From an uncultured virus (IMG/VR IMGVR_UViG_3300035208_001228) (lineage: Duplodnaviria; Heunggongvirae; Uroviricota; Caudoviricetes), in the IMG/VR virus record IMGVR_UViG_3300035208_001228: a stretch of DNA of 64,000 nt; one strand, written 5' to 3'. Positions 1 to 17,771 of this stretch are shown one piece after another. A model generated the notes under the pieces. That model did not search any database, had not been told where the DNA came from, and was given only the letters and a program-made list of their open reading frames with translations. Position 1 is the first letter of the stretch. Every line of letters starts with the position of its first letter. The translations under genes were made by a program, and so were the position numbers.

Positions 1-518
1 CTGCGCTTGACCGGATGGCCGGCGGGCTCTGCGCCTTGACCGGATGGCCGGCGGGCTCTGCGCTTGACCGGATGGCCGGCGGGCTCTGCGCCTTGACCGA
101 TGGTCGGCGGGCTCTGGCCGGCGGGCTCTGCGCCTTGACCGATGGTCGGCGGGCTCTGGCCGGCGGGCTCTGCCGATGGTCGGCGGGCTCTGCGCCTTGA
201 CCGATGGTCGGCGGGCTCTGCCGATGGCCGGCGGGCTCTGCGCCTTGACCGATGGTCGGCGGGCTCTGGCCGGCGGGCTCTGCCGATGGCCGGCGGGCTC
301 TGCGCCTTGACCGATGGTCGGCGGGCTCTGGCCGGCGGGCTCTGCGCCTTGACCGATGGCCGGCGGGCTCTGCCGATGGTCGGCGGGCTCTGCGCCTTGA
401 CCGATGGTCGGCGGGCTCTGCGCCTTGACCGATCGTCCGGCGGGCTCTGCCGATGGTCGGCGGGCTCTGCCGATGGTCGGCGGGCTCTGCGCCTTGACCG
501 ATCGTCCGGCGGGCTCTG
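1..518. repeat. Composite GC-rich tandem repeat, ~22 copies of CGGCGGGCTCTG with linkers of ~2, 8 or 16-17 nt; runs off the window start
   Basis: Read directly; long linker contains the palindrome GACCGATGGTC; ORFs over it are repeat translations. Confidence 0.95.
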
Positions 519-637
519 GTCGATCGGCGCAACCCGCAGAGCCGGCGCAACCAGCCGAAAGACTGAGCGACGGCCATCCACCATAACCGGGACGAAAATT
601 CGACTCAGGACAAAAATCAGAATTTCCGGTTTCCAAT

Positions 638-666
638 TTGACTAACCGTTCACAGTGGTGTATACT
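638..666 (+). promoter_or_regulatory. sigma70-type promoter, family member 1
   Basis: TTGACT-aaccgttcacagtggtg(17)-TATACT, then AGGAG SD before ATG 685. Confidence 0.85.
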
Positions 667-684
667 TGAAGTTAGGAGATACTC

Positions 685-1476
685 ATGCCGAATTTGCATC
701 AATGCTTGACCTGGAAAGACAACCACGATTGGGGCGGAAAAGTCGATACGCCCGATGGGCCTTACTACCATCACAAGCATGGTAGCAAGGTGCTCGGCGT
801 CGCCCATCTTGATACCGTGATGAGCGCGCGGCCGATCAAAGACGGCAAGTTTGTCTGCTGCCCGCAGCTTGACGACAGACTCGGCGTCTATTGCTTGCTG
901 GATTGGTTGCCCCGTATGGGCATTCAACTTGACGTGTTGTTGACGACGGGCGAGGAGCACTGCCGCAGCACGGCCGCGCACTTCCAGGGTGAATACAACT
1001 GGATTGCCGAATTCGATCGCGCCGGCAACGACGTAGTATTCTACCAATATCACGACGATTTCGCGCCGTGGTGGTCGGGCCGAATCGGACATGGCAGCTA
1101 TTCCGACATCGTAGATATGGAAGCACTAGGAGTCTGCGCCGTTAATATCGGGATCGGCTATCAGTTTCAGCATACGATGGAATGCTATGCCGATCTGCGA
1201 GAAACAGAAAAGCAACTGAAGCGATTCGGGAAATTCTTTGACCGCTACTGTGAAACCCGGTTCCCGTTCACGCCGCCGGTCTACGTGGACGATTGGAAAC
1301 CGCGCCGAAAGCACAAGCGAAAGCACAAGCGCGCTCTTGTCGAGTTGCCGCCGCGCAGTGAATCCGGCCATTGGTGGAATGAGCGCGACGAGTTCGAGTA
1401 CGACCCGTGGCGCAAGTCTAACGAAGAGTGGCAGAACTGGGACGAACTTGCCAAGCTGCACAACGAGTTTAACTAA
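685..1476 (+). CDS. Zn-dependent exopeptidase (M28/M20-like)
   Basis: AHLDTV, LDDRLG, GEE, EFDR and late His metal ligands. Confidence 0.7.
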   Translation: MPNLHQCLTWKDNHDWGGKVDTPDGPYYHHKHGSKVLGVAHLDTVMSARPIKDGKFVCCPQLDDRLGVYCLLDWLPRMGIQLDVLLTTGEEHCRSTAAHFQGEYNWIAEFDRAGNDVVFYQYHDDFAPWWSGRIGHGSYSDIVDMEALGVCAVNIGIGYQFQHTMECYADLRETEKQLKRFGKFFDRYCETRFPFTPPVYVDDWKPRRKHKRKHKRALVELPPRSESGHWWNERDEFEYDPWRKSNEEWQNWDELAKLHNEFN

Positions 1477-1653
1477 TCATGGACATCAAACGATATGCTT
1501 CACGTGGAATGGCCGAACGAATGGGCGCAATGCGGCAGAGCGCGGCGAGTGCTCACAAGTCGCAATGGTGCGACCGGTTGACGGTGGCATGTATGGTCCA
1601 GTGGTCGGCGGGCTACCGCGTCTAACAGGACACAAATTCGGCTCAGGTGAAAC

Positions 1654-1857
1654 ATGCCCAACAACCCCGTATGCCAATGCTGCAAGGGCGACCGGTTTGT
1701 AGAGGTCACGCTGCGCGACTTGTCAGGCAAACAGCGCGACGGCTGCGGGGTGCAGTACGCTGTAGCTTGCGAGATGTGCAACGGCAAGGGATACACCACG
1801 CAAGAGGACCACGATCGGTATCTTCGCAGTGTCGGCTGGTTGGACGGCGAGCGATAA
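1654..1857 (+). CDS. Small Zn-finger protein (CxxCxG x2)
   Basis: CQCCKGD...CEMCNGKG; bounded exactly by two intergenic elements. Confidence 0.7.
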   Translation: MPNNPVCQCCKGDRFVEVTLRDLSGKQRDGCGVQYAVACEMCNGKGYTTQEDHDRYLRSVGWLDGER

Positions 1858-1885
1858 CAAGACAAGAATTCGGCTCAGGTGAAAC

Positions 1886-2095
1886 ATGGCGTGCCCTAAA
1901 TGCGACTTGACGAATCGACCACTGGCCAGCGCCGGTCTAATGAGCTATCGTTGACGCAGTCCGTCCGGCGGGTGGACAATGATCGGCGCGCATGACCCTG
2001 CCGAAGCGTACAAAGAGGCGTTGCGCAGCGACTCAGGCGCGCAACAAGATGATTTAGAAGTTTGGAATGGGCGCCAGTATGTAAGTTGCAGGTAA
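1886..2095 (+). pseudogene. Small phage protein with in-frame TGA at 1952
   Basis: MACPKC...MSYR*RSPSGGWTMIGA...WNGRQYVSCR; frame runs on to the TAA of the next element. Confidence 0.6.
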
Positions 2096-2124
2096 CACAG
2101 AGCAAATTCGGCTCAGGAGAAATC

Positions 2125-2413
2125 ATGGCCCGACCACGCGAAGCAACCGCCGCGCGTGACTGATAGCAGACGACGCCGAAGGGCTTGCTATTCGCCACGT
2201 GACCATTGCATCAAGTTACCACGGCACTACCAGCACAAGATCGGTATTTGCCACGAGATGGCCCACGCAATCGTGCCGAGCGCGTTCGCATGGCATAGCC
2301 CGCGGTTCGCTACGCTGGTTGCGGAACTGTAGGACCGTTACGCCGGCGTGCCTAGCAAAGACAGCCGAATTCTCGGTGCCAATCTTGCACCTCGCCGCGT
2401 TCGATTCGTGTAA
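2125..2413 (+). pseudogene. Decayed zincin (HExxH, SprT-like) protein
   Basis: ICHEMAHAIVPSAFAWHSPRF..EL*DRY; TAG at 2330, 5' frameshifts; ends at element TAA. Confidence 0.55.
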
Positions 2414-2530
2414 CAAGACAAGAATTCGGCTCAGGTGAAACATGGAGCAGTTGCTTGCCAAGCACCCGAAAGCATTTTGTGACAAAAAAGGAAACGGCGT
2501 TTGGCCATGCTTAACACCTCAGGAGCAATC

Positions 2531-3055
2531 ATGCTGACATTCAAGAAAACAACCCGTGGCATGCACGAAGTGGATGACGGCTCCAAGTGGCTGGTAAGAG
2601 AAGCGCCCGTCTCTCTGCCCTGTACGCTGATCGGGCATAATTGCCACATCAAGGGCAAGACGGTCGATGTGCCTTGCGCTGAGTTGACCTTGCTACGTGC
2701 CTACGATTGCGGGATACGTGACGCGGGAAGCCATAGCAGGTGGTCAAGCAACGTGCGATATATCGTCTACGAATGGAAACCGACCTACGGGTGGCCGTCT
2801 ATCGTGATTGTCACCGACTGCGGAGGCGGCCCGTGTTATTGGACGGTTGACCAACTCGACTTCTACAACACGTGGGTTGCTCTGGCTGGCGTCATCGACG
2901 ACGCGACGGCGTGGGACTTGCTATCTGCCCTCACTGGCACGTATGACAAGGGATTCGGTGAAGGAAGTAAGAAGATGAGCACGTTGTTCCTGCAAGGCCG
3001 GTTGAAGCGGCGGAAGCGGCAGGGCGCGCACCACTTGGAAATTCTTCCTTCGTGA
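2531..3055 (+). CDS. Hypothetical protein
   Basis: AGGAG SD before ATG 2531; 174 aa ORF. Confidence 0.65.
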   Translation: MLTFKKTTRGMHEVDDGSKWLVREAPVSLPCTLIGHNCHIKGKTVDVPCAELTLLRAYDCGIRDAGSHSRWSSNVRYIVYEWKPTYGWPSIVIVTDCGGGPCYWTVDQLDFYNTWVALAGVIDDATAWDLLSALTGTYDKGFGEGSKKMSTLFLQGRLKRRKRQGAHHLEILPS

Positions 3056-3058
3056 AAC

Positions 3059-3086
3059 TTGACAACCATCCACAGTGGTGTATAAT
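3059..3086 (+). promoter_or_regulatory. sigma70-type promoter, family member 2
   Basis: TTGACA-accatccacagtggtg(16)-TATAAT. Confidence 0.85.
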
Positions 3087-3441
3087 TGAGTATTGGCACA
3101 TGAGGAGGAATTGCGTAGCACCTTCGGGGCTTGTTTGTGTGAAGTCAAAACAATTCTCAGGAGCAACAATGTCTTGTCTTGAAAAATGGTTGAGTCTGCC
3201 ACCGGGTGCGCTTGTCTCTTTCGACCGAGTGGCAGCCGTGAAGTTGGCCGATTGCGGCGTAGGAGAAGAAACATGATACGTGGTCCGCCTTAGCCGCAAC
3301 CCGCAAGCAAACGCGGATTGACTCAGAGAGAAAGACAGCCAGAGAGAACATAGCTTCCTATACCGCTGACCACGAAAGGGCGGCACCATGACACGCAAGT
3401 AAAACCTTGCAACCGGGCCACCGACTACCACCGCGATCTGA

Positions 3442-3470
3442 TTTCAGAACCGTTCGCAGTGGTGTATCAC
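3442..3470 (+). promoter_or_regulatory. Degenerate member 3 of the promoter family
   Basis: tttcag-aaccgttcgcagtggtg-tatcac; core conserved, -35/-10 weak. Confidence 0.55.
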
Positions 3471-3878
3471 AACAGCGGGAGACAACAATGACAGCGGCAA
3501 CACTTTAGAGCGCTTGCGGAGGAGATTGCCAAGATTGGCAGCCACGCCGCGAGGAGGAAAGCGGCTGCCGCTGTCATTGCCGCGTGTGCGCGATTCAACC
3601 GGAACTTCAACACCGTTCAGTTCTGGAGGGCTTGCAACCTATGAATGATAAACAACGATTGAGACTTCGCTTTCTCGCCATCGCCGACCAGTTGCAGGCG
3701 TGTATCCGGGACGGCCGCGAGTTTGGCGAGGGCTACAAACAACTCGTCAAACTAGGCCGCGATCTGCGCCTCATTAACAAGGCGGGAAGATGACCTATCG
3801 CGCAGTCTATTGGACGCCGGCGTCGTGCTATGGCGTGGAGGAAATACCCGGATGACCATTCCCGAACGAGGTGACAGT

Positions 3879-4166
3879 ATGAATCATGTGAAAGCCGCCT
3901 ATGAAAATGGGCGTTGTCCCGACTGCGGGGAAGACATTCCCGAGGATGTCATGCACGGTCAAGCGTGTTCCAATTGCGAACACGTCTTCTTCGACGCTTG
4001 CGCCCGTTGCGGCAACGTATTGCAAGACAACGGCTTGTGTTCTGACGAAGCGTGTCCCTTCTCTGACCATTTTCAGGGCTGCCCGGCCGGATGGGCCGGC
4101 CACCCGGAACTGGGAGCCGGGCCATGCACTTGTCTAGCCGAACTCGTCTCGGGAGGGGTCCAATGA
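3879..4166 (+). CDS. Cys-rich Zn-ribbon protein
   Basis: CPDCG, CSNC, CARCG; GAGGTG SD. Confidence 0.6.
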   Translation: MNHVKAAYENGRCPDCGEDIPEDVMHGQACSNCEHVFFDACARCGNVLQDNGLCSDEACPFSDHFQGCPAGWAGHPELGAGPCTCLAELVSGGVQ

Positions 4167-4456
4167 AACCGACACCCCACGACGAATTCATCCAGTGCGG
4201 AATCCTGCCCAATGTTGTGGCCAGCACCTGTCTAAACTCGCGTGGCCACACTTTGACAGCGGGCCAAGCTGATTGGTTTATTAAACACGTCGATACGCGG
4301 GTTCGATGGTTGCACGCTAACAATGTGCGATGGCGGCGGTCGTTGGACCGTGGCGACCGCGATCAACTTTACGTGTGGGTCCACCACTGGCTTGAGGCGT
4401 ATTTGCGCGGCCCGGTCACATACCAAGAGCGACACCCAATGGAGGCAATGCAATGA
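4163..4456 (+). CDS. Hypothetical protein
   Basis: GGAGG SD, ATGA overlap. Confidence 0.6.
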   Translation: MKPTPHDEFIQCGILPNVVASTCLNSRGHTLTAGQADWFIKHVDTRVRWLHANNVRWRRSLDRGDRDQLYVWVHHWLEAYLRGPVTYQERHPMEAMQ

Positions 4457-4707
4457 TCGAATGCCTGGAAGACTTTGCGGCACAATGGGGCGCAGACCCG
4501 TGCTACGTGCGAGAACCGAACCTGCCCGGCGACGGGTATCTGTTCTACAACTTCGCTGCCGAACAAGACGACCCGGAGTTCCGGCGGACGTTCATTCCTG
4601 CAATCGAACGGACCATCGAATTCGCCAAGCTGAAGTGCGAGCCCGCAGACGTGGACGACTTGCAAGAGTTTCTCGGCCGCGTCAGAGAAATGGAGCAAAC
4701 ATCGTGA
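4453..4707 (+). CDS. Acidic hypothetical protein
   Basis: GGAGG SD, ATGA overlap. Confidence 0.6.
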   Translation: MIECLEDFAAQWGADPCYVREPNLPGDGYLFYNFAAEQDDPEFRRTFIPAIERTIEFAKLKCEPADVDDLQEFLGRVREMEQTS

Positions 4708-4874
4708 GCAAGACAAAGACAAACCTTTGACTATTGAAATCCAGTATGGCGTGCGCGATGGACCGACTCACGGGAACCGCGTTGTCGATTGACGACCACG
4801 GCGAATACGGCAAGCCAAAGGTGGGCAAGTTCTTTGCCCTGAAACAACAGCAGAATTTGGCTAAGGAGAAATCT

Positions 4875-5114
4875 ATGGACATTGAAACATTGGTCAACAA
4901 GTTATGCGACCCAGTTGACTTTGCTGAGACGTATTGCGGGTGGGACTCTTCAGACTATTACGAGGAGTGTTTGCCGGACAGTGCCGGCGGTTGGATACCC
5001 GCCGACGGGTCCGACCGGTCAATTCACGACGCTGCAATGGACGCGGTACGGGAATGGGCGTCGGAAACAGCGGCCAATCTGGAAACACTTCGTGACGCCG
5101 TACAAGCATTCTAA
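4875..5114 (+). CDS. Very acidic small protein
   Basis: Bounded by two intergenic elements; D/E-rich. Confidence 0.65.
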   Translation: MDIETLVNKLCDPVDFAETYCGWDSSDYYEECLPDSAGGWIPADGSDRSIHDAAMDAVREWASETAANLETLRDAVQAF

Positions 5115-5296
5115 CAACGGCAGCATTCGGCTAAGGAGAAAACGCGATGAAACTCGACATCAGAATTGACTTAGCCAATGTGGCGTTCGGTGACGTGTCC
5201 GGCGTCGAGACAGCACGAATCCCGCGGCGGCAACGAAAGAAGCGGGTGCGGGTCGAGCGGCGTAACAACGACGGAAATTGACTCAGGAGAAACCAC

Positions 5297-5824
5297 GTGA
5301 GCGACAAACCCGACAACGAGCAATTGACCGAGATTCTCAAGCATCTGCCCGGCTGGCGCAACAATGAGCGGTACGCCTACTCCCATTGGTGCAGCGGGAT
5401 CACTGATGACGCCGGCCACGACGTGTCGGTCGAGTTGTATCTAGGACGGTTGCGATTCGTCGGACACTTTCCCGGACAAGGGGACGAATCGCAGACCATC
5501 TCCGTCAGCGCGAGCCGCTCGGCCGAGGAGATTACCGCAGATTTCCGGCGTCGGTTCCTGCCCGGATACCTGGAACAATGGACCGTAGCAAGGGCCCGCG
5601 CGGACAAGCAACAAGAATTCAAGATCGGCACGGAGACGACTTGGCGGAAGCTGTCGCAACTGCCCGGCATGAGGGCGTTGCAGCACGACAAGACGCTATA
5701 TGGTCCGAACTGTAGTTACATCAATGTCCAGGGACCGGACAGCGTGCGGGTCGAACTACGCGGGAATCTGAATGTTCGCCAAGTCAAACGGCTCATTGCG
5801 ATGCTCAACAGGGCAACAAAATGA
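5297..5824 (+). CDS. Hypothetical protein
   Basis: GTG after element SD; 175 aa. Confidence 0.65.
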   Translation: MSDKPDNEQLTEILKHLPGWRNNERYAYSHWCSGITDDAGHDVSVELYLGRLRFVGHFPGQGDESQTISVSASRSAEEITADFRRRFLPGYLEQWTVARARADKQQEFKIGTETTWRKLSQLPGMRALQHDKTLYGPNCSYINVQGPDSVRVELRGNLNVRQVKRLIAMLNRATK

Positions 5825-6511
5825 CTCAGGTGAAATTGCCGCGCCAGGACGTTGCGTATGCCGCCGCGATGGACGCCGCCAATCGACGTATGCGAGCCGA
5901 GGGTAGAACAACGTGGAATCAAGAAGACTACGCCGCAGCAGTAGCGGCCTACAACACAATAATCGAAGAAGCCAAAGGGGACTGTTGAATGACTCACACT
6001 ACTCAAGAAAGCATCACAATGAATCCTGCCGAGTTACCGTTTAACGAGATTATCGAGCACCAACAAGGCGACCGCGTGGTATGCCGAATTATGCGGGACG
6101 GCTGGGAAGTCGGCACGTGGGCCGAAGCTGGGTGGGACGGTGCGGGGCCAATCGCGCGGAAAATCCTGGCGGTGAATGACCTATTCGAGTGCCTGGATAA
6201 CACGGCGGCAGCACTTGAAACAATGCTGGCCCATCACACCATGCCGGAGGGAGACCGCGTTTCACGGCAACGAGTGCTTGACGCTGCCCGCCAATTTCAA
6301 CTCTTACAAGAAGAAAGCACAATGACAAAAGCAAGCCTCATACGACGCTTGAGGGCGATCGAACGAAACGTCGTACAGGCACAGTGCGATCTCGCTGGCG
6401 GGCGTGCAAAGCGATGCTTGAAACAGGCACATTTGCAGACGTTGCGGACAATCGCCGCTGCAAGAAGGTCACACCAGGAGAAACACCAGGAGAAACACCA
6501 GGAGAAACACC

Positions 6512-6894
6512 ATGCAGGCATTGAACAAGACATCAGAAGCTGTCTTTTACAGGTTGACTGAGGGCTGATGAGGGTCGGCGACCATCGGAAGCACGACAAC
6601 AACAGCGCCTTCATGGCGGTTTGCGTGGAAATTGTCGGGCAGACTGATCGTGGTCTGCTAATCAGTGTCGCGCATTACTACGCGCAGAATGGCGACATGA
6701 TGCGTGACCCCGACGTGGTCTTCCTCGTTGACGAGCACGCCTACCCGATTTCCTATCGGCAGGATGGTCTGGGAGTCAACCGGGAAGCGGCGTGCATTGA
6801 AGACGGGGTGTGGAAAGTCTACCCAAAGATGCAGGCGGACATTTGTCGGTTCTGCAACCAATGGATGCGGAACATCAAGGCGCAGCAGTTCTAA
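6512..6894 (+). pseudogene. DUF6908-like protein, frameshift near 6562
   Basis: SVAHYYAQNGDMMRDPDVVF...WMRNIKAQ; N-terminus MQALNK in another frame. Confidence 0.6.
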
Positions 6895-7248
6895 CAAGAC
6901 GCAAATTTGGCTCGGGAGAAATCAATGATTCAAGTGCGAGTAGGCGACGCCGGTGAACTGGAAACGCCGTGTCTGCTGTGGCGGCGTTGTTCTACGCAGC
7001 TACTCACAGTTCGGAAACCTTGACTAACCTGGCGTCATCCACGCTGACTGGCGTAGGCATGGCGATCGGTGGCTGCCTTGGAAGTGCATTGATTCTGCGC
7101 TTCAAGTCTGCTCGCCAGTACATTCGTGCTGTTCTCAAAGATTTGCAATAACTGACGGCGATCGGGCCTGCTTTGCAGGGAACTCGTACCCCGTCTGGTA
7201 ATCGCCGTCAGTCTTATCCTTTTCCTTTAGCGCCCGAGGTATGCGCCC

Positions 7249-8334
7249 ATGTCTACCGTTTTCGTTGAATTGACTGTTGTTGACGACGTAAGGCCACATC
7301 CGAACGCCGACAAGCTGGAAATTGTTGTCATCCGTGGGGTCACAACGATTGCCGGCAAGGGCGAGTTCTCTAAGGGCCAGCGCGTTGTCTATTTCCCGCC
7401 TGACATCCTTCTTCCCCCAGATATGAGTTTGATGCTTGGAGTACAGAAGTACCTCAAGCACGCGGAATGGCCTGGTGATTCCAGTCATCCTGTTGGCAAG
7501 TGCCAATGCCGGGTGGCCGGATGCCGATTACGTGGTGAACCCAGTTATGGATTCATCATTCCTGCGCCATCCATTTTGGATAACCATGCCATTGGGTCTG
7601 ACGTATCCGTGATGTGGGCAGCCCAGAAATACGAGCCTCCGGTTCGCTATTTCTATGGTGATCTCGCTCCCGAGGACAATCGGTTCCACAAGTACACGGA
7701 CATTGAGCACTACTGGCGTTTCAACGAAGCCATTGCTGAGGGCACGCTGGTTCGGATCACTGAGAAGATTCACGGCACCAATTCGCGCGTGGGCCTGGTA
7801 ATGAAGAACGGCGGGTTCGAGTTCATGGCCGGAAGCCATCGGACAAGACGGAAAAAGCCAGAGGGTGAAAGCACTTCAATCTACTGGCGTCCGCTCGAAG
7901 ACGAAGGCATCCTGAACCTGTTATCGCATTTGTGCGACGAACAGAACTCCGTCATCGTCTTTGGAGAAATCTACGGTGCCGGAATCCAAGACATGGATTA
8001 CGGTGCAAAGGATGGCTACCGAGTTTTCGACATCAGCGTCAACGGCAAGTACCTGGATTGGGACGCCGTGAAGGACTCCTGCCGAATGTTCGATGTCGAG
8101 ATGGTGCCAGTCCTCTATGAGGGTCCATTCACCAACGATTTGGTGAAACAGTTCACTTACGGCCCAACCACCTTGGCCGAACCTGGTCAAATCAAGAGCA
8201 GTTTCAAGGACCGCGAAGGTTGTGTTATCACTCCTCAGATCGAGCAGCCCTACGCACCGACAGGCGGACGCCTGATCCTCAAGAGCGTGTCGGCTGACTA
8301 TCTCGATCGGAAAGGTGCTCAGGACAACGAATGA
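7249..8334 (+). CDS. RNA ligase, DRB0094/Rnl5-like
   Basis: HPNADKLE OB domain, TEKIHGTN, FGEIYG, REGCVI, ILKSVS. Confidence 0.88.
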   Translation: MSTVFVELTVVDDVRPHPNADKLEIVVIRGVTTIAGKGEFSKGQRVVYFPPDILLPPDMSLMLGVQKYLKHAEWPGDSSHPVGKCQCRVAGCRLRGEPSYGFIIPAPSILDNHAIGSDVSVMWAAQKYEPPVRYFYGDLAPEDNRFHKYTDIEHYWRFNEAIAEGTLVRITEKIHGTNSRVGLVMKNGGFEFMAGSHRTRRKKPEGESTSIYWRPLEDEGILNLLSHLCDEQNSVIVFGEIYGAGIQDMDYGAKDGYRVFDISVNGKYLDWDAVKDSCRMFDVEMVPVLYEGPFTNDLVKQFTYGPTTLAEPGQIKSSFKDREGCVITPQIEQPYAPTGGRLILKSVSADYLDRKGAQDNE

Positions 8335-8639
8335 CGCTTGATCTGATCCTTGATGCCATTGTCAACGAGAGGCAATATCAGGCCCGCCGTTGGGGAACCC
8401 GTCATGGCCTCAATCGCTTTGAGGAAACTCAGCGATCGGTCCCCGACTTTCTCGTCTACATGAAGACTTACCTGGATGACGCATTTCGGAGCGCTACTAC
8501 CGAGGTTGGCGATGACAAGGCTCTTGAGGCTTTGCGGAAGGTCGTCGCCCTCGGGGTAGCCTGCTTCGAGCAGCATGGTATGCCCGTGCGTGATCCGAAC
8601 ACACGTTGCGTCAACGCACGAGATGGGATGGTTGCATGA
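8331..8639 (+). CDS. Small MazG-like all-alpha protein
   Basis: ERQYQ...LRKVVALGVACFEQHG. Confidence 0.45.
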   Translation: MTLDLILDAIVNERQYQARRWGTRHGLNRFEETQRSVPDFLVYMKTYLDDAFRSATTEVGDDKALEALRKVVALGVACFEQHGMPVRDPNTRCVNARDGMVA

Positions 8640-9150
8640 ACAAACTGATCTTTCTGGATATGGATGGGGTGATTGTCAATTTGCAGGACGCTGTGCAACA
8701 GATGCACGGATTCGATGTCAACAGCGCCTTCCATCGCCACGAATTGGGGATGACCCAAGAACAACTCTGGGGCCAGACGGACGCCAACTGGTGGGCCGGT
8801 CTGCCGTGGATGGAGGATGGTCGGGCGATCCTAGCTCTTTGCGAGGACACTGTGGGAGTCGAAAACGTCATCATCTGTACGACGCCGGCCGAGTGGCCAG
8901 GCGCTGCGGAAGGGAAATTGCGATGGATCGAGCAGCAGATGCCAAACTATGCCCGTCGCTTCGTGCTGACGCCGGATAAGTCATGGTGTGCCAATGGGCG
9001 AACCTTGTTGATTGATGACAGTGCCCATGTGATTGATGCCTTTCATTCAGCAGGCGGGGCGACACTACTTTGCCCCGGCCGTGGAATGCAATGCACTTCC
9101 ATGAGGCCGTGAACTTTTTGCGATTTGGGATCGCGGAGATGCTTATATGA
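8636..9150 (+). pseudogene. HAD 5'(3')-deoxyribonucleotidase-like, frameshift near 9072
   Basis: FLDMDGV, GKLRWI, LLIDD; expected PRPWN tail is in another frame. Confidence 0.7.
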
Positions 9151-9659
9151 ACTACGTCATCTGCTATGCCCATCCTCATTGGGAGGTTTACCCCACTGAT
9201 ATTCTCTTGATTCGGAAGAACAGACCGGATTGGCAGGCTGGCAGATACAACCTACCTGGCGGCAAGATCGAGGATGGCGAGACGATCCACGAAGCCGCTT
9301 CCCGCGAACTGTTTGAGGAAACGAACATCAAGGCCCATCATGTCCGAATCATAGGCACGATTGAGGCTGACAACTGCATCGTTTACGTCTGCGAATGTAC
9401 GTTTGACGCAAACGAAGAAGCAGCCACGATGACTGATGAGATGGTGTTCTGGATGGACGTAGGTGATGCTCTACGCGATCCCTTACTCCTAGACAGTCTT
9501 CGTGTCGCAATTCCATTCTGCTTCACACAATTGTCTTGCTGGCACATTCGCCAGCAGACGGAACGATTCTCTACTGCTACCAGTTCACAAATCACTTTTG
9601 AGGAAGTCCATGCGAAAATCGACGTACCTAAGTCATTCTTCTTTGGCCCTGTGGGCTAA
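9147..9659 (+). CDS. NUDIX hydrolase
   Basis: GGKIEDGETIHEAASRELFEET Nudix box. Confidence 0.9.
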   Translation: MNYVICYAHPHWEVYPTDILLIRKNRPDWQAGRYNLPGGKIEDGETIHEAASRELFEETNIKAHHVRIIGTIEADNCIVYVCECTFDANEEAATMTDEMVFWMDVGDALRDPLLLDSLRVAIPFCFTQLSCWHIRQQTERFSTATSSQITFEEVHAKIDVPKSFFFGPVG

Positions 9660-10120
9660 AGACAAAGAGGAGTTCTACATCAAGCACCTGGCCGAAACTC
9701 GCGCCGAGAATCGCCCAGGAAGTCTATATGTCTGTGAGTGGTAGTTTTGACGCCTACGTTAAGGCAGCCCTGCATGAACGCCTCTTTGGTAAGGGTGCTG
9801 ATCCCCAATTCGAGTTCAACACGATCTTCGAGAAGCAGGTTGAACCCCAGAACCGTGACTTCGCCTTGGAAGCCGGCAAGTACATCATGGCTTGCTACGT
9901 GATGACGGGTGCCTTCGAGGAACTTCTGGCCATGCTGGAAAAGTCCAAGGAGACGCCTCGATTCGAGTTCGAGGTTCATGGGGACATCATGGGTGTGCCG
10001 TTCGTGGGCAAGCCTGATTGCCGCTTCGTACACGAATGCGGACCCCATGTGATTCTCGATTGGAAGGTCAAGGGCTTCTGCTCGAAGTACGGAGCAAGTC
10101 CGTCGAAGAATTACCGGCTC
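9610..10120 (+). pseudogene. Truncated, frameshifted PD-(D/E)XK nuclease, paralog of 31563-32549
   Basis: LSHSSL..EFYIK..FDAYVK..QVEPQNRD..GKPD..DWKV; cut off at the element at 10116. Confidence 0.8.
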
Positions 10121-10131
10121 GGGAGAAATCC

Positions 10132-10932
10132 ATGTACATCCAACTGACCACCCGCTGCAACATGGAATGCCAGCACTGTGCCATTGACTGTGGTCCCGTG
10201 GGCGAGGACATGCCGGAGGACATCTTCGACAAGGCGCTTGTGCTTGGGCAGATTTACGACGGCACGGTTACTCTTGGTGGCGGTGAGCCGACCATCCATC
10301 CCGTGTTCCCGATGTTTTTGCTCAAGGCGATAATTAAATGCTCCGGCAGGCTGTGCGTCACCACTAACGGCAAGGATGAAGGTCCAGTACGGTTCCTACT
10401 AAAGTATGCTGAACGGAGACAGGTCTTTGCCCGGCTATCACTCGATTCGTTCCATGACCCTATCAACCCGGACATCGTGGCGGCGTTCAAGGCGTTGCCG
10501 CCGATGTTCAAGTTTCGTGAAGGCGACCAGCACATTACCCCGCCTCCAGACACGATAGCCAACTACTCCCCGATCGGCCGCGAGCTACGCCGCCGTGGTC
10601 TGACGGAAACTCCGGCGAACGCGCATTGCGTCTGCCCCGGCCCGTTCATTGCACCGAATGGTGACATACGGCAGTGCGGTTGTACGGACCACGTTGTTGG
10701 GCACGTTGTTGGGCACGTTGTTGGGCACGTTGACGATGTTCTCGGCATCGTCGGCACGCTGCCCTGGCCTTGCTCGCGTCGAAGTCCGATCAGGATGATA
10801 ACAAGACCGAATTTTGGCTCACGAGAAATTGAAGAAACCAAGAGTCGCTGGTACACTGAGGGCTATGCAACGACTGATCGAAAGTATCGTTGCCATCGAA
10901 ATCAACGAGTGGCGGCTGACCGCCGTGCATAG
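10132..10932 (+). CDS. Radical SAM protein (3' end probably frameshifted near 10799)
   Basis: CNMECQHC, LGGGEPTIHP, VTTNG, SLD. Confidence 0.85.
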   Translation: MYIQLTTRCNMECQHCAIDCGPVGEDMPEDIFDKALVLGQIYDGTVTLGGGEPTIHPVFPMFLLKAIIKCSGRLCVTTNGKDEGPVRFLLKYAERRQVFARLSLDSFHDPINPDIVAAFKALPPMFKFREGDQHITPPPDTIANYSPIGRELRRRGLTETPANAHCVCPGPFIAPNGDIRQCGCTDHVVGHVVGHVVGHVDDVLGIVGTLPWPCSRRSPIRMITRPNFGSREIEETKSRWYTEGYATTDRKYRCHRNQRVAADRRA

Positions 10933-10941
10933 GAGAATGCT

Positions 10942-11178
10942 ATGAAGTTCAAATTGCTTGTAGACTGCAAGGATCGTGCCACGCTCGATGCGGCGCTTTC
11001 AAAGTGTGTAAAGCATTGTTTCAAGACAGCTACTGTCATCGAGCGTGTCGCGGTGGGTGACTTTACGACACAAGAGTATAGGCAAGCACCGGCCGGCGTC
11101 GGGCCGTTGGCGGCGGTGTGGGATGCTACTCCGCGCAAACTGATCTTCGATCTTTGCGACCGATTGGAGGAGAGGTGA
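10942..11178 (+). CDS. Hypothetical protein
   Basis: AGGAG SD. Confidence 0.5.
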   Translation: MKFKLLVDCKDRATLDAALSKCVKHCFKTATVIERVAVGDFTTQEYRQAPAGVGPLAAVWDATPRKLIFDLCDRLEER

Positions 11179-11355
11179 AGGTTGTTCATCGAGACGATGG
11201 TTGGTGGGTCACGGAGATTCATCCTGAATCTAATGACATCGGCCCCTACACCAAGGATGAGGCGGAAAGCCACCGTCGTTGCTTACAGAAGACACTTGCC
11301 AATTTGGAGAATAGGGCATTCTTCACTTGTGAGAAAATAATCTCGCCGTCCCCGC

Positions 11356-11383
11356 TTGACAACCGTCCGCAGTGATGTATGAT
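11356..11383 (+). promoter_or_regulatory. sigma70-type promoter of the cas12 gene, family member 4
   Basis: TTGACA-accgtccgcagtgatg(16)-TATGAT, GGAG SD, GTG 11409. Confidence 0.85.
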
Positions 11384-11408
11384 TGAGTAGCACCATTGGA
11401 GACACAAC

Positions 11409-13280
11409 GTGACAATTAAGGTCTACAACTACTACATTGTTGGCCAGCCGTCGAATCTGGACGCCTTGAACAAGGTCTTGGCTACGGGCAGCGCGATGTG
11501 GGACGCTCTGGTAACTGCGTTGGATGACTATCGACGGGGATTGTGCGATTTCGCCTGGTCCGTAAACGAAGAGGGTCTCCAAGCTGCAAGCAAGGCGATT
11601 GTGGACACCTACGCCCCACTATACATGGCGCGGACGGCAGCCAAGAAAGCGGCCGTCGAGCGTAAGCGTCGGGCTGCAACATCCGACGCGCCTGCCATCA
11701 AGAGGTTGGAAACAGCGTACGACGCAGCGATTAAGCGGTTCTGGCAACTTCGGAAACAGGCCGTTAGTAGCCAACGCAAGAACGACAAAGACGTATTACA
11801 GGCGGACCCGGAATGGAACACGCTCACCGACCTATTGAGTCGGCGACCAAAGAATGAGAGCAACAACAACCGGGTGAAGAAACAACTGCGTGCAAGCATC
11901 GCCGAACGCGAGCGAGCACTGTTGGCCAAGACGCCTGCAATCCTCGACTTGGACTATGTCGCGCAGAAGAAAGCGGCAAGCAGCCGATACCGGACGCAAC
12001 TTCGGTCAGGTTTCCGTGGGGAGATCATCAAGAACTTCGACACAGCGTCGAAGGCGGGCAAGGTCTACACGAAGGACGGCGAGGGAATCGACTTCTATTA
12101 CGAGAGGACGCAAGATGGGGTGTCCAATGCCCAGTTCAGCGTGTCCGCCTTCGACGTGCCTGTTGATCTTTGCGAACAGTTTACCAACAAGAAGCGGACT
12201 ATCAAAGCGCAGATGCGTCTCGGTCCCGGCAATGTCACGGAGTTTGTCTTCAAACAGCACCGCCCGCTCCCGGCGGATGCGAAGATCGCGGGCATCCGAC
12301 TGTGCCGTGACCGCGTCGGGCATCGCATCAATTGGTCAATTCAGTTCACCATACACACGGCAGACTGCTATGAACCAGCCCAGAATACAGACGAAGTCGG
12401 CTTCGACTTTGGCTGGCGTCGCAAACCCGACGGTAGCCTGCGTGTTGCGTATTGGTCCAGCCGAATTGACGCAGGTGAGATCGCCATCCCCGCGCACGTC
12501 CTTTCCAAGCGTGCTCATCTTCAGGACATCAAGTCTGTGAGCGACAAGTGCTTCAACGAGATGCTTGCCAGCGTCCGTTCCTTTGCGGCAGCAAACGCAG
12601 TCCCAGAGTGGCTAGTGGAGGAGTTGAAGATGAGCGCGGCATGGCACAGCCACGTACGCTTAACCCAGCTTGCCGAGTTATGGGAGACACGTCGATTCGA
12701 GGGTGACTCGGACATCTACTATCGACTGAATGGGGACAGCAAGAAACATGCGATCACGAAGACGGCCGCTGGAAAGACAACGACGCATCATGGCTATGTT
12801 GGCTGGGTCGCTCGTGATCGGCATTTTCAGACATGGTTCGCCGAGGGGACGCGCAAGCTGATTCGTTGGCGAAAGCAGTTCTACGCTGGGACGGCGAAGA
12901 CGTTCTGCGACCGTTTTGGCGTCGTGAAGTTCGAGGATACCGAGATTCCTGATCTCTGCCGACGTGCCCCGGTCGAGGATCGCAGTAATGAGGGGATACT
13001 GAAGATGTGGGCTTTCGCCTCGCCCGGCGAGTTGCGTGACGCATTCCAATCACGTGCCAACGTCTTCCAGAGGGTCTCGGCACCGTACACAACGCAAGTC
13101 TGTCAGCATTGCCAGGCCATCGTCAAGTTCGGTGCGCCTTTGGTGGCGACGTGCCCCGGATGCGGCGAAGTCCTGGACCAGGACCAGAACGCATCCGTTA
13201 ATGTTCGTGACTCCAAAAACATCACTGCAACCTTCGTTCGTGGGTCAGGTCAGAAACAGAAAAAGAAGCGGTTTGACTAG
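11409..13280 (+). CDS. cas12: Type V CRISPR effector, Cas12m(V-U1)-like / TnpB-derived, 623 aa
   Basis: HRPLPADAKI..RVG, RuvC-I VGFDFGWR, RuvC-II KFED, CQHC/CPGC Zn finger, RuvC-III DQDQNAS; array adjacent. Subtype assigned from remembered motifs only. Confidence 0.85.
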   Translation: MTIKVYNYYIVGQPSNLDALNKVLATGSAMWDALVTALDDYRRGLCDFAWSVNEEGLQAASKAIVDTYAPLYMARTAAKKAAVERKRRAATSDAPAIKRLETAYDAAIKRFWQLRKQAVSSQRKNDKDVLQADPEWNTLTDLLSRRPKNESNNNRVKKQLRASIAERERALLAKTPAILDLDYVAQKKAASSRYRTQLRSGFRGEIIKNFDTASKAGKVYTKDGEGIDFYYERTQDGVSNAQFSVSAFDVPVDLCEQFTNKKRTIKAQMRLGPGNVTEFVFKQHRPLPADAKIAGIRLCRDRVGHRINWSIQFTIHTADCYEPAQNTDEVGFDFGWRRKPDGSLRVAYWSSRIDAGEIAIPAHVLSKRAHLQDIKSVSDKCFNEMLASVRSFAAANAVPEWLVEELKMSAAWHSHVRLTQLAELWETRRFEGDSDIYYRLNGDSKKHAITKTAAGKTTTHHGYVGWVARDRHFQTWFAEGTRKLIRWRKQFYAGTAKTFCDRFGVVKFEDTEIPDLCRRAPVEDRSNEGILKMWAFASPGELRDAFQSRANVFQRVSAPYTTQVCQHCQAIVKFGAPLVATCPGCGEVLDQDQNASVNVRDSKNITATFVRGSGQKQKKKRFD

Positions 13281-13379
13281 AAAATGGCGGCAGAGCCGAA
13301 AGAATCGGTCGCTATTCCCCAGTTTCCAGCCGGAAGTTTGCCCCTAACGTCCGCGTGTGTAATGAGTTAGGACAGACGG

Positions 13380-13793
13380 GGTGTGAAGCAGGTGCGGCTG
13401 CTGCCGATCCGCAACAACCCTTCGCAGTGATGTAAACTTATATTGGGTGTGAAGCAGGTGCGGCTGCTGCCGATCCGCAACAACGGATTCGGTATGTCAC
13501 CCGGCGGTGTGAAGCAGGTGCGGCTGCTGCCGATCCGCAACCCATGCTTAATGACTTGGGGTGTGAAGCAGGTGCGGCTGCTGCCGATCCGCAACTCAGT
13601 GCTAGTGCTAGGCGCGGGTTGCGCCGGTGTGAAGCAGGTGCGGCTGCTGCCGATCCGCAACCCATGCTTGGATCGTTCATCGCGTCTAAGTGGTGTGAAG
13701 CAGGTGCGGCTGCTGCCGATCCGCAACTTGTTGTCGAGACGAGAAAGGTTCCATCATGGTGTGAAGCAGGTGCGGCTGCTGCCGATCCGCAAC
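13380..13793 (+). CRISPR. CRISPR array: 7 identical 36-nt repeats GGTGTGAAGCAGGTGCGGCTGCTGCCGATCCGCAAC, 6 spacers (30, 24, 18, 30, 30, 30 nt)
   Basis: Repeats start at 13380, 13446, 13506, 13560, 13626, 13692, 13758; 99-nt leader after the cas12 stop. Confidence 0.98.
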
Positions 13794-14017
13794 TGAGCGT
13801 CCGGGATGTGGCGGAACGGCTGGAGGTCAACCAGAGCAAGGTGCTGGGTTGGATCGCTTATGGCCGGTTGAAGGCGTCGAACGTGGCCAAGGGTGGCGCA
13901 TCCGCGAAGAGGCTTGCTTTGAAGGACTTTCTAACTGGTCGTGCAGGCCCCTCCCCAGCAGACGCTTCATTGAGACGCCGACAGCATCCGGCGGATCGGT
14001 TAAAATCCAAGCCCTGA
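13793..14017 (+). pseudogene. Headless excisionase-like HTH abutting the last CRISPR repeat
   Basis: LSVRDVAERLEVNQSKVLGWIAYGRLKASNVA, homologous to 17677-18042. Confidence 0.7.
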
Positions 14018-14332
14018 AATTTGAACCAGCCTAGTAGCGTTAAAATACGGTGGCAAGAATTTGAATGATGAGTGGGATAGAATTACCTGCAAGTTCTCGT
14101 AGATGCAGGGTTTGAAAGGGCCGACGATGAACCGCATTTCTCTCTTAGCGGCTGTCAAGAACGCTATCGACCGCCTGTACCTCTCAGTGCTACGTTGGAA
14201 TCATTGTCTGAGGTACGTGACCATCTCGATGTGCTAATTGACGCTGTCGAGTGTGACCTGAAAGAGGATGCCGACTAGCGTCGGTACTTACTGACAAGTC
14301 CCGACGTTTTGGCACAACATGAGAAAAGAACA

Positions 14333-14506
14333 ATGATTCCGGGCGACAAATTTGGACAATTGACTGTGCTAGCGGCTCCCTATCGCGTAGTAAATACGTG
14401 CAATTACAAGGTTAGAGTTCGTTGCGATTGCGGCACGACAGTGTTGTGTGGCTGCCACAGTCGCAGGTTGTTCATTCAACGTAACAAAGCACGCCAGATT
14501 GAATAG
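14333..14506 (+). pseudogene. N-terminal fragment of an HNH/AP2-type endonuclease
   Basis: GDKFGQLTVL...RCDCG. Confidence 0.5.
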
Positions 14507-14563: not shown

Positions 14564-15460
14564 TTAGGCAGATCGACGCGATGTATCAACCGCCTGTTCC
14601 ACTGCTTTCTGAAGATGTGCCGCGCGTCGCTGCAAATGGGCGTAGCATTGATGCACCATTTTAAGGCTAGAATGCCCGAGCAGGGTGCAAAGCGTGATCG
14701 GATCGACGCCTCTTTCAAGCGCGTTCGTCGTAAAAGTGTGCCTCAATGAATACGCCGTGACCGGAAAGCCGACCCGTTTCGCCAGCCGCTCAAAGCGGCC
14801 GACCAAAGCAGCGGTGCTCCACCCTTTGCCACGAGAATTTCGGAATAGTGGTCCCTCGGGTCTTTTCAGAGCGAGTCTTCTGCAAATCTCGTAGACTCGA
14901 CTGGATAGATGCACCACACGCGGCACCCCACCCTTCCCGCGGGCGAACGACCAACACATCCCGTCCAGGTTCTTGGCCGTGACCAGTCTTGCCTCTTGGG
15001 GCCGGCAGCCAGTCTCATGTAGGGCAACGAGCAGGTCGAGGAGATCAGCCGGACAATAATCCATCAACCGAGTAATCTGCTCGGTTGTTAGGTAGACATC
15101 GTCGCCCCGCCTTGTGGCGGCAGGCAGCTTCAGGTTGCGCAGGGGCGAGACGTTGATGTAGCCTTGCTCCTCGCACCACTTGAAGCAGGTCTTGGCCGCT
15201 CGCATTGCGTTGCGACAGCCCGTGGCGTGGAAGGGCCGGAGATCGCTGATGGGCATGTCGGGCAGCCCCTTGAGAGACTGCGTGTAGAAGCTGAGATTCC
15301 CTGGGCTCATGGGGCGGGCGAGGAATTGTTGGACAGCTTGCCCAACAGTTTGCAGGGTGCCCCCGAGGGCAGCCTGGGCCTTCGTCTCGGTCGTTCCGAG
15401 GCGGACGGCCTTCCCGTGCCGATTGACGTACCAAGCATGATGTGATTTCTTGTAGTACAT
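14564..15460 (-). CDS. int: Tyrosine recombinase/integrase 1 (probably leaderless)
   Basis: TGCRPQE, K, YSLRHTF, LLGH, Y; ATG 7 nt after the -10 box. Confidence 0.92.
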   Translation of the reverse strand: MYYKKSHHAWYVNRHGKAVRLGTTETKAQAALGGTLQTVGQAVQQFLARPMSPGNLSFYTQSLKGLPDMPISDLRPFHATGCRNAMRAAKTCFKWCEEQGYINVSPLRNLKLPAATRRGDDVYLTTEQITRLMDYCPADLLDLLVALHETGCRPQEARLVTAKNLDGMCWSFARGKGGVPRVVHLSSRVYEICRRLALKRPEGPLFRNSRGKGWSTAALVGRFERLAKRVGFPVTAYSLRHTFTTNALERGVDPITLCTLLGHSSLKMVHQCYAHLQRRAAHLQKAVEQAVDTSRRSA

Positions 15461-15466
15461 ACTACA

Positions 15467-15495
15467 ATCATACATCACTGCGAACGGTTTGTCAA
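15467..15495 (-). promoter_or_regulatory. sigma70-type promoter of integrase 1, family member 5
   Basis: TTGACA-aaccgttcgcagtgatg(17)-TATGAT on the - strand. Confidence 0.85.
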
Positions 15496-16553: not shown

Positions 16554-17771
16554 ATGTCCATGACTGTTGATTCTACCGCATCTTTGAAACCTGCCAAGCC
16601 CTACCCCGAGTTTCCGCTGTACGCCCACGCCTCCGGGCGCTGGGCTAAGAAGATTCGCGGTAAGACGTGTTTCTTCGGCCCCTGGTCTGACCCACACGCC
16701 GCCTTGAAGAGGTATCTCGCCGAGAAGGACGACCTCGAAGCCGGCCGGCGGCCGGTCGTGGTGGCTGCCGACGCGCTCACGGTCAAAGAAATGGTGGATG
16801 CCTTCCTCAACGCCCGTTGTCTGGACGTGGAGAGCGGCAACCTCGATCGGCGCACGTGGAAAGAGTACGAAGACTTTGGGCACCGCATGGTCCGCGTATT
16901 TGGCGGGCAGGCGACGGTACAGGCCCTTGGTCCGGCCGACTTCCTGACACTCAAGGCCGATCTTCAGAAGACTCATAAGAGCCTGGTCTCGTTGAAGGGG
17001 GACATCCGCAAGATCAAGGTGTTCTTCAACTGGGCAGGTCCGGGCGACAGAGGGCAGAATCTCTATGAACGACCGCTGCGATTCGGACCTGGCTTTCAGA
17101 GCCCGAGCACCAAGTCGATTAAGCGGCAACTCGATAAGCAGCCACTGAAGGTCTTTCAGCGTAAGCAGGTCCGACGAATGTTGGCCAAGGCCGGACCTCG
17201 TTTGAGAGCCATGATCCTGCTGGGGATTAACTGCGGCCTTGGCAATACCGATTGCGCCCGGCTGACGCGGAAGTGGGTGAGTCTGAAGACCGGTTGGCTG
17301 CATTATCCTCGGCCGAAGACCGGGGTCGAGCGACACTGCCCGCTATGGCCTGAGACCATTGCGGCGATCAAGAAAGTCTGGGCCACGCGGAAGGCCCCGA
17401 AGAACCCAGCGCACGACGAGCATCTTTTCCTCACCGTGCGCGGGTCGCCATTCGACGGTACGGACATCAGCCACGAGTTCCGCAAGCTGGCTGACGACCT
17501 GGGATTGGTGTGCCCTGGCTTCTACGCCTTTCGACACACGTGCGCCACGATCGGGAGCCGCGCCAATCTTCAGAAGGCGATCGACACGATCATGGGTGAC
17601 TTGCCGCCAGCCAATTACATGGTCCGTAGCGTCTACGACCATAGCCAAGCGTCGAAGAAAGACTTACAAGCGGTCGTTAGTCTCGTACGCGCTTGGTTGT
17701 ATCCGGCTGCCGATGCGACGTTTCCATCTTTGGTCGTCTCCCTGCCGGCCGACCACCCGGCTGCGGTTTGA
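16554..17771 (+). CDS. int: Tyrosine integrase 2
   Basis: N-terminal arm domain WAKKIRGK..FGPW; RPKTG, FYAFRHT, late Y; MGD where MGH is usual. Confidence 0.88.
   Translation: MSMTVDSTASLKPAKPYPEFPLYAHASGRWAKKIRGKTCFFGPWSDPHAALKRYLAEKDDLEAGRRPVVVAADALTVKEMVDAFLNARCLDVESGNLDRRTWKEYEDFGHRMVRVFGGQATVQALGPADFLTLKADLQKTHKSLVSLKGDIRKIKVFFNWAGPGDRGQNLYERPLRFGPGFQSPSTKSIKRQLDKQPLKVFQRKQVRRMLAKAGPRLRAMILLGINCGLGNTDCARLTRKWVSLKTGWLHYPRPKTGVERHCPLWPETIAAIKKVWATRKAPKNPAHDEHLFLTVRGSPFDGTDISHEFRKLADDLGLVCPGFYAFRHTCATIGSRANLQKAIDTIMGDLPPANYMVRSVYDHSQASKKDLQAVVSLVRAWLYPAADATFPSLVVSLPADHPAAV

Follow-up and report, generated by a model that had tools for sequence, protein, structure and literature searches.

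What joins the row of small genes near the start of a large environmental phage sequence, and what does the joint do for them? The question is raised by a 64,000-nt stretch of DNA from an uncultured virus of the Caudoviricetes (IMG/VR record IMGVR_UViG_3300035208_001228; the whole stretch is called the window here, and all positions refer to it). A sequence-only reading of the window had noticed a short stop-to-start element repeated between small genes, and had proposed that the array was an integron-like or homology-driven platform for gene shuffling or, alternatively, that the element acted as a shared RNA signal. How new accessory genes enter the rapidly changing early regions of phages, and come to be expressed there, is only partly understood. 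We find that the repeated element is real and well above chance, and that it is not an integron. With a probability that we place at about 0.55, it would be a portable intercistronic translation linker that serves at the same time as a patch for recombination.

A repeated element confined to one gene array

The element is about 31 nt long and occurs in 12 copies, all on the plus strand within 585-10829 and nowhere else in the 64 kb. Its core, GGCTCAGGWGAAA, searched with up to two mismatches, gave 13 matches in the window against 2.57 ± 1.50 in shuffled sequence, none of 100 shuffles reaching 13. Twelve of these matches lie on the plus strand between 602 and 10828, while the thirteenth, at 42001, carries two mismatches and has flanks unlike those of the other copies. 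When a profile of the 12 copies, which fit it by construction, was run against the other 53 kb of the window, the next best match had an E value of 2. At the other gene starts inspected in the window the Shine-Dalgarno (SD) sequences vary and are often weak, and none resembles the element; a scan of positions 1-14500 against Rfam returned no matches up to E = 1. The estimate of about twelve copies at the array was accurate.

The copies align as TAACAAGAC-N-AAATTCGGCTCAGGAGAAATC-N-ATG, the invariant columns falling in GGCTC and in the GG.G...AAA part. Two of them (1855-1889 and 2411-2445) are identical at 35 of 35 positions and have unrelated flanks; sub-groups of alike copies can be recognized (copies 2, 3 and 5; 6 and 7; 10, 11 and 12), and similarity among copies ends sharply at the borders of the element.

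Position of the element between open reading frames

The TAA at the 5' end of the element is the in-frame stop of the preceding frame in six of the 12 copies (1623, 1855, 2093, 2411, 5112 and 6892), with the copy at 585 a doubtful seventh case. At 5263 and 5806 the preceding frame closes instead at a TGA inside the element, created by a change of GGCTC to GACTC. A start codon follows the core in 11 of the 12 copies (eight ATG, one GTG and two TTG), opening open reading frames (ORFs) of 67, 22, 12, 31, 79, 44, 175, 50, 32, 266 and 38 amino acids. Since these sizes go down to 12 amino acids, not all units are intact genes. The sequence-only reading had the element, in its best copies, begin exactly at the upstream stop, which holds for half of the copies, and end at the next start, which holds for all copies but one; its further statement that each unit is one ORF does not extend to the units that are not intact.

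Four cassettes are broken or truncated. The HExxH remnant at 2125..2413 is weakly SprT-like (E 0.009, under the Pfam cut-off), and the 32-amino-acid chimeric ORF behind copy 10 is cut by the junction of an acquired block at 6966. The 175-amino-acid product of w5297 has relatives at 70-80% identity in other metagenomes. Homologues of the radical-SAM protein behind copy 11 end near residue 216, so that the last 50 residues of its ORF are read through copy 12. The array sequence, breaks included, is identical in contigs of four DNA runs from three studies, all of them possible sources of the DNA of the window itself, and the breaks are therefore not errors of one assembly. The runs listed as containing this sequence include no RNA run. 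Within the radical-SAM gene there is also a 12-nt tandem repeat encoding HVVG units (10690-10732); a 98% identical protein on a 93.9-kb contig has one unit fewer, which makes this a length variant within the phage population.

Translation signals and RNA structure

The SD core alternates between AGGAG and AGGTG, both of which pair with the anti-SD sequence, so that complementarity is kept with either base at the W of AGGWG. The two copies with a degraded SD (1 and 12) are those without a credible gene behind them. Upstream of the SD, the 17-nt 5' halves of the twelve copies contain 17 ACA motifs against 3.3 expected, a count reached in none of 20000 resamplings. ACA motifs in this position raise translation in enterobacteria, according to Yang et al. 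2014 (PMC3879156).

The element is also poor in structure. RNAalifold found no consensus pairs in the 12-copy alignment, and each of the 11 copies folded was less stable than the mean of its shuffles (11/11; z +0.18 to +1.12). Windows of 50 nt at the element average -5.75 kcal/mol, compared with -11.25 kcal/mol for 1496 windows of the same region (Mann-Whitney p 7.5e-6). The weak dyad (TTC...GAA) to which the sequence-only reading had drawn attention is present in the letters, but neither the consensus fold nor the comparison with shuffles supports it. The position of the element, its SD core, the ACA-rich 5' half and the low structure together make a shared RNA element for translation the best supported of the alternatives that had been put forward.

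Transcription signals are placed elsewhere. None of ten promoter-like sites in 1-14500 falls inside any copy, and no convincing terminators were found between copies in the array region. No terminator-like site lies wholly inside an element, and one minus-strand match (2138-2124) lies directly against the end of copy 4.

A gene-replacement junction inside a copy

Between copies 10 and 11 lies a block of foreign sequence (Table 1) that is 68-80% identical at the nucleotide level to five related phages. Homology to all five stops at 10108-10120, inside copy 11. At the ends of the block the relatives have a full-length 344-amino-acid gene and a 154-amino-acid gene, of both of which the window keeps fragments. 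The genes at the block ends are 83-87% identical to those of the relative G001, compared with about 49-58% for backbone genes, and the window has its own, more distant full-length copy of the 344-amino-acid gene at 31563-32549; both facts mark the block as acquired.

At the right junction the foreign gene (AAGAAYTACCGNCTC) and the element (AAGAATTCGGCTC) share microhomology, and the crossover falls within GGCTC. The 5' half of copy 11 has been lost and replaced by the end of the truncated foreign gene, and because the crossover lies in GGCTC the radical-SAM gene retains the SD half of the element. DNA of a donor-like lineage is present in runs X1 and X4, where a 30-letter loose end at 10116 equals the continuation in contig L024 at 30 of 30 positions. 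The junction fits homology-assisted illegitimate recombination; a secondary-site event of a site-specific enzyme is also compatible with it.

Where long pieces in the contigs of the four runs cover the array they do so without differences, and the six joints listed all lie outside copies of the element. Breaks in these contigs fall at 1860-1884 and 2416-2440, as expected of an identical 35-mer in a 31-mer graph, and the depth of the middle piece is not below that of its flanks.

A diverged relative that carries the element

The closest backbone relative, G007, has a DNA polymerase 64% identical in amino acids and is collinear with 14.5-63.5 kb of the window over about 49 kb, the proteins of the two backbones sharing only about 55-73% identity. 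The first array gene has a homologue in G007 (59%), beyond which a variable region extends up to the G007 integrase. Of the 14 matches to TAACARG on that strand of G007, 13 lie inside this homologous region of 6.7 kb. Six G007 copies read TAACAGGG..AAATTY..CTTTGGAGAAA..ATG with the order and spacing of the window, each combining TAACARG-N3-5-RAATTY with GGAG. The TAA of three of them closes ORFs of 183, 213 and 84 codons, and some copies precede truncated ORFs. Across 148 loci (2.13 Mb) the pattern TAACARG-N3-5-RAATTY occurs in four: that of the window's phage, two G007 loci and one stray; the window itself has five matches against 0.01 expected. A combined profile of window and G007 copies matches the latter by construction.

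The genes around these copies differ. Only three segments of the two arrays are clearly homologous (the first gene, a 48-amino-acid ORF and one 37-amino-acid domain), and the columns conserved in both phages are TAACA, AATT, CT, GG and AA, GGCTC being specific to the window. The linker would thus outlive the genes that surround it across the window phage and G007. Together with its place where ribosomes start, its low structure and its enhancer-type motifs, this points first to a role in translation initiation. On the reverse strand of G007 two short-form junctions were also seen, at 9601 and 10258, in which a stop runs straight into an SD (TAACAGGAGCTAATCATG and TAACAAGGAGAAACAGCATG); the long linker may have grown from such a compact stop-SD-start junction.

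Relatives with other leaders

Scans for the exact core AATTCGGCTCAGGWGAAA gave three single matches in viral contigs, 19 in genome contigs and 36 stretches in metagenome contigs, all at chance level apart from L080, a contig of the window's own phage that matches 418-12440 with 100% identity. Of the relatives reached by way of the RNA ligase (49 loci) or the DNA polymerase, seven whole records were searched and all lacked the exact core; one match with two mismatches was found, in G004. Queries with w685, w5297, the radical-SAM gene and the Cas12m-like gene returned no relatives from viral contigs.

Related phages without the element have leaders of their own. At the left end of G001 each small gene lies behind its own leader, TAG-CAGACTC-(CACAAC)n-AAGAGG-N6-ATG, of which G002 and G003 have variants; the stop-to-start leaders of all three combine CA repeats with AGAGGG. 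The left ends of G001 and G002 are collinear except for two extra 87-amino-acid ORFs in G002, each with its own leader, and the alignment gap for these cassettes sits at the single leader of G001. Neither ORF has a counterpart anywhere in G001, and in G003 one of them finds merely a 29-amino-acid match (E 6e-4) elsewhere in the record. This insertion or deletion at leaders means that gain or loss of cassettes exactly at the linker occurs in this phage group. The sequence-only reading had called for a comparison of relatives for unit gain and loss; it yielded the two cassettes at leaders in G002 and the differing genes around the element in G007, the genomes compared including no close pair that carries the element. 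Also in G002 (L121), at 113.4-114.5 kb, there are seven repeats of about 100 nt with a conserved inverted pair (AACCGCTTCG..AAGAGGCGGTTTCC), spaced by 100-330 nt, which may be a structured RNA or an iteron array.

A proposed portable linker and recombination patch

We propose a model in which the linker would consist, from 5' to 3', of the TAA of the preceding gene, an A/C-rich, ACA-bearing stretch of low structure (AACAAGAC..AAATTY), a strong SD, AGGAG or AGGTG, followed by an A-rich spacer, and the start codon that opens the following gene. Long early transcripts would be made from host-type sigma-70 promoters, and on these, as its anatomy suggests, the linker would offer each small, often foreign gene an open and efficient ribosome-loading site. 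The recurring 20-35 bases in direct orientation would serve as homology patches for the recombination machinery of phage or host, and genes would be replaced, inserted or deleted at the linker, a process of which one junction is seen in the window and which the relatives suggest to be general. A dedicated integrase would be unnecessary, and the genes between copies would turn over and decay fast around a persisting linker. The likely role of the element as an exchange patch is supported by its repetition in direct orientation with up to 35 identical bases, by the copy 11 junction, by the decay of cassettes and by the insertion or deletion between G001 and G002. The homology-driven shuffling suggested earlier is in this way supported in part, through the copy 11 junction, the turnover in G007 and the leader-bounded differences.

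Several observations weigh against this proposal. The low structure comes partly from a lower G+C content (47% vs 55%), and because the copies share ancestry the p-values for ACA motifs and folding are optimistic. GGCTC, the best-conserved run of non-SD bases in the window, is unexplained by ribosome pairing and is not kept in G007. For recombination, the evidence in the window amounts to one event; the left junction of the acquired block (6966) lies 44 nt past copy 10, outside the element and out of frame, and the contigs of the four runs show no rearranged form, rare variants being invisible in contigs. A Mantel test of whether neighbouring copies are more alike than distant ones was not significant (p 0.055-0.095). 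Finally, a profile built from the window only scores the G007 copies at just E 0.84 and 0.98, so that the link to G007 rests on the clustered TAACARG matches and on the pattern TAACARG-N3-5-RAATTY, which was written after the G007 copies had been inspected.

Alternative explanations

The unexplained bases lead to a second account, which we consider unlikely: the element would be an RNA site for a trans-acting factor (a phage or host protein, a small RNA, or an endoribonuclease, for instance RNase E, cutting at AAUU), with ribosome loading secondary. Joint regulation and processing of early cistrons are known from RegA and RegB in T4. Bases outside the anti-SD match are as conserved as the SD itself (GGCTC in the window; TAACA and AATT in the window and G007), and inspection found no pairing with the 16S rRNA 3' end beyond AGGAG/AGGTGA, the tail used being that of E. 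coli, which may not be the host's. Each lineage has its own linker sequence, as expected if the linker co-evolves with a factor. Four genes, w685, w1479, the integrase w14564 and the ECF-like sigma w15492, accompany the element in both the window and G007, whereas G001-G004 and G006 lack them; this co-occurrence is confounded by kinship and carries little weight because it comes from a single lineage. The lack of GGCTC in the G007 copies speaks against such a site, and the AAUU motif is too short to weigh. From similar data the authors of the study on start-associated sequences (SAS; PMC3203893) inferred a factor of this kind.

That the copies are instead passive leftovers of serial duplication or gene conversion of one intergenic region, with only an ordinary ribosome-binding site in them, is improbable. 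The pair of copies identical over 35 bases between unrelated flanks, the sub-groups of similar copies, the genome-specific GGCTC and the several copies that precede dead genes would all agree with it. Yet the 5' motif, AATT and SD are common to G007 despite divergence of the backbone and differing array genes, and are hard to retain there without selection or continuing exchange; likeness ends sharply at the borders of the element, and the decayed copies are those that lost their gene.

The integron-like platform, in which a tyrosine recombinase would act at the weak dyad to capture and excise single-gene cassettes, did not withstand examination, and we regard it as very improbable. Traits in its favour are the promoterless one-ORF-plus-element units, with all 12 copies and ORFs in direct orientation on the plus strand, and two tyrosine recombinases downstream, as the sequence-only reading had noted (Table 1). 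The integrase w14564 is found in the two phages with the element and is lacking in five relatives without it, a co-occurrence confounded by kinship, and the copy 11 junction lies between the dyad halves, where a tyrosine recombinase would cut and where a secondary-site event could have taken place. The recombinases, however, lie 3.7 and 5.7 kb past copy 12, with the Cas12m-like gene and its repeats in between, and the nearer one is encoded on the opposite strand. Recombinase 1 scored 37.3 bits against the integron-integrase model TIGR02249 (cut-off 265), over residues 238-287 only, and 19.8 bits against NF011946 (cut-off 435); recombinase 2 matched neither and has homologues in relatives without the element. 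Under RNA folding parameters an attC-like hairpin is absent from the element (no consensus pairs in 12 copies, and all 11 folded copies fold no better than their shuffles), as is an attI/Pc layout at the head of the array, whose promoters at 638, 3059 and 3443 are separate, and the left junction of the acquired block is out of frame and not at an element.

Scarcely credible, in turn, is that the element is a promoter for the phage ECF-like sigma factor (15492-15998) giving one transcription start per small gene, for although the sigma homologue is confined to the two element-bearing phages and the element is asymmetric, on the gene strand and directly before genes, its AAC-to-CGGC spacing is 12 nt where 16-17 nt is typical of ECF promoters, the A/T alternation in AGGWG suits an SD and not a -10 box, transcripts would begin at or after the SD, the array is already served by consensus sigma-70 promoters, and the remaining 53 kb, whose middle and late genes would require promoters of this kind, is without the element.

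Relation to known systems

The element resembles two described families of phage repeats and is a member of neither. The first is the SAS of Cluster K mycobacteriophages (Pope et al. 2011, PMC3203893), whose function was still unverified in 2025 (PMC12699233). As set out in the 2011 study, an SAS is likewise a short, asymmetric repeat of one orientation, present in 11-19 copies per genome, confined to the non-structural half of the genome and placed a few bases before the starts of unrelated genes; it combines AGGAG with conserved bases unable to pair with 16S rRNA, and the upstream stop codon is at times inside the repeat. The differences are considerable. The 13-bp SAS consensus, GGGATAGGAGCCC, has one match with at most two mismatches in the window (41036, outside the array) against 0.90 expected; the element is about 31 nt compared with 13 for the SAS, extends back to the stop codon and has no ESAS-type inverted repeat; host and phage lineages are different; and a gene-replacement junction inside a copy is seen directly for the element.

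The second family comprises the promoter-early stem-loop (PeSL) cassettes of T4-type phages (Arbiol et al. 2010, PMC2839356). PeSLs are conserved intergenic units that run from the upstream stop to the SD and start of the next gene and are concentrated in hyperplastic, ORFan-rich regions, and genes are inserted, deleted or replaced at them through homologous recombination with no dedicated integrase. For PeSLs this was shown experimentally, mini-circles between units included. A PeSL, as described there, is about 100 bp long and has its own sigma-70 promoter and terminator stem-loop, of which the element has neither.

Two further comparisons are instructive. With ACA- or CA-rich translation enhancers the element shares ACA just upstream of the SD, and G001 and G002 have long CACAAC repeats at the same position; the enhancers described by Yang et al. 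are in single host-gene leaders, whereas the element, a putative enhancer, is a repeated portable unit. With integron attC arrays it shares the row of promoterless single-gene units in one orientation, the repeated element and the tyrosine recombinases nearby, but not the IntI-type integrase, the attC hairpin or the attI/Pc arrangement.

Genomic context of the array

The coordinates of the copies and of their neighbours are collected in Table 1.

Table 1. Copies of the element, cassettes, promoters and neighbouring features in the window.
Feature	Position	Strand	Description
Copy 1	585..614	+	relic; SD degraded (AGGAC), no start, promoter next at 638; profile E 1.3e-4
Sigma-70-type promoter	638..666	+	10/12 consensus; conserved family, drives array
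Copy 2	1623..1653	+	TAA closes ORF 1479-1625; ATG 1654 opens 67-aa Cys-rich ORF
Copy 3	1855..1885	+	TAA closes ORF 1654-1857; ATG 1886; 35/35 identical to copy 5
Decayed cassette	1886..2095	+	open from ATG 1886 to TAA of copy 4 but for one in-frame TGA (1952-1954)
Copy 4	2093..2124	+	TAA closes frame of cassette 1886..2095; ATG 2125
Decayed cassette	2125..2413	+	12-aa ORF, frameshift, HExxH remnant with in-frame TAG; frame closes at TAA of copy 5
Copy 5	2411..2441	+	ATG 2442 opens 31-aa ORF overlapping start of gene 2531-3055
Sigma-70-type promoter	3059..3086	+	12/12 consensus; same family as 638
Sigma-70-type promoter	3443-3467	+	near-consensus; weaker family member
Copy 6	4842..4874	+	AAAC replaces TAAC; ATG 4875, 79 aa
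Copy 7	5112..5146	+	TAA closes ORF 4875-5114; ATG 5147, 44 aa
Copy 8	5263..5296	+	upstream ORF stops at internal TGA 5279-5281; GTG 5297 opens 175-aa ORF
Copy 9	5806..5835	+	CAAC form; upstream ORF stops at internal TGA 5822-5824; TTG 5836 or ATG 5821
Copy 10	6892..6924	+	TAA closes DUF6908 gene 6568-6894; ATG 6925 opens 32-aa chimeric ORF
Acquired block	6966..10120	+	3.15 kb; RNA ligase, NT5C-like, NUDIX; truncated gene at each end
Copy 11	10099..10131	+	chimera; only 3' half (10116-10131) is element; ATG 10132 opens radical-SAM gene
Copy 12	10799..10828	+	relic; SD degraded (ACGAG); within extended radical-SAM ORF, different frame
Sigma-70-type promoter	11356..11383	+	11/12 consensus; marks array end and start of Cas12m-like unit
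Tyrosine recombinase 1	14564..15478	-	Xer-like, 304 aa; context only
Tyrosine recombinase 2	16554..17771	+	405 aa; context only; homologues in element-less relatives

The window belongs to a large environmental phage that encodes a family-A DNA polymerase, DNA and RNA ligases, ClpP and a primase/helicase-like protein. A C5 cytosine DNA methylase gene on the minus strand (40936-42963) is split by an intein with a Hint domain and a LAGLIDADG-like domain, and four genes for free-standing HNH-AP2 endonucleases lie at 20007-20720, 25434-25919, 32571-33050 and 57787-58308. Dense tandem repeats of 28-29 nt (GGCGGGCTCTGCGCCTTGACCG...) occupy 1-534, upstream of the array; the public contig L080 of the same phage ends within this repeat field, at position 418 of the window, and G001 has comparable fields (GCGCAGACTC) beside its own array.

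The early promoters form a repeat family (638-672, 3058-3092, 3443-3467, 11355-11389 and, on the minus strand, about 15460-15499), the minus-strand copy lying before the integrase gene at 14564-15478. Conservation in this family extends to the spacer between -35 and -10, which is close to a palindrome (CCACAGTGG) and suggests an operator for a regulator.

Beyond the array, the unit at 11409-13793 encodes a 623-amino-acid Cas12m-like protein that matches solved Cas12m structures (E 7.6e-19 and 5.5e-13) and has a TNB domain of the Cas12f1/TnpB type. Its gene is followed by an array of seven identical 36-nt repeats (13380-13793) with spacers of 30, 24, 18, 30, 30 and 30 nt, all unit lengths being multiples of 6. 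Gene and array look like a phage-borne miniature type V-M-like system; relatives G001 and G007 have no homologue of the gene. The spacers do not match the element. Only spacer 1 (13416-13445) resembles the phage's own promoters, differing at 7-8 of 30 positions from 644-673 and from 15460-15489 on the minus strand, a likeness that spans the promoter spacer region through the -10 box. No better target for it was found in G001-G004. Spacer 1 could act as a weak promoter of the repeat array, or could serve as a guide that targets early promoters in related phages.

Significance

More tentatively, and on balance doubtfully, a clade of environmental phages of roughly 90-150 kb may keep gene-capture platforms at its early ends, with lineage-specific linkers that would both ensure expression and target recombination: TAACARG..AAATTY..GGAG in the window and G007, and CA repeats in G001 and G002. 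Such a linker may be recognized by a lineage-specific factor or by the co-occurring Xer-like integrase. If so, phages would have their own equivalent of the integron, in which a translation signal takes the place of the attC hairpin.

To our knowledge, repeated stop-to-start units have been described in two cases, PeSLs and SAS, to which the element adds a third form, without promoter or hairpin. It combines a replacement junction inside a copy, a linker kept amid gene turnover, and sister lineages with different linkers in its place. If it is confirmed as both an enhancer and a recombination patch, the element would be of use as a small, portable module for the expression of foreign genes from polycistronic messages and as a marker for arrays of accessory (anti-host) phage genes in metagenomes.

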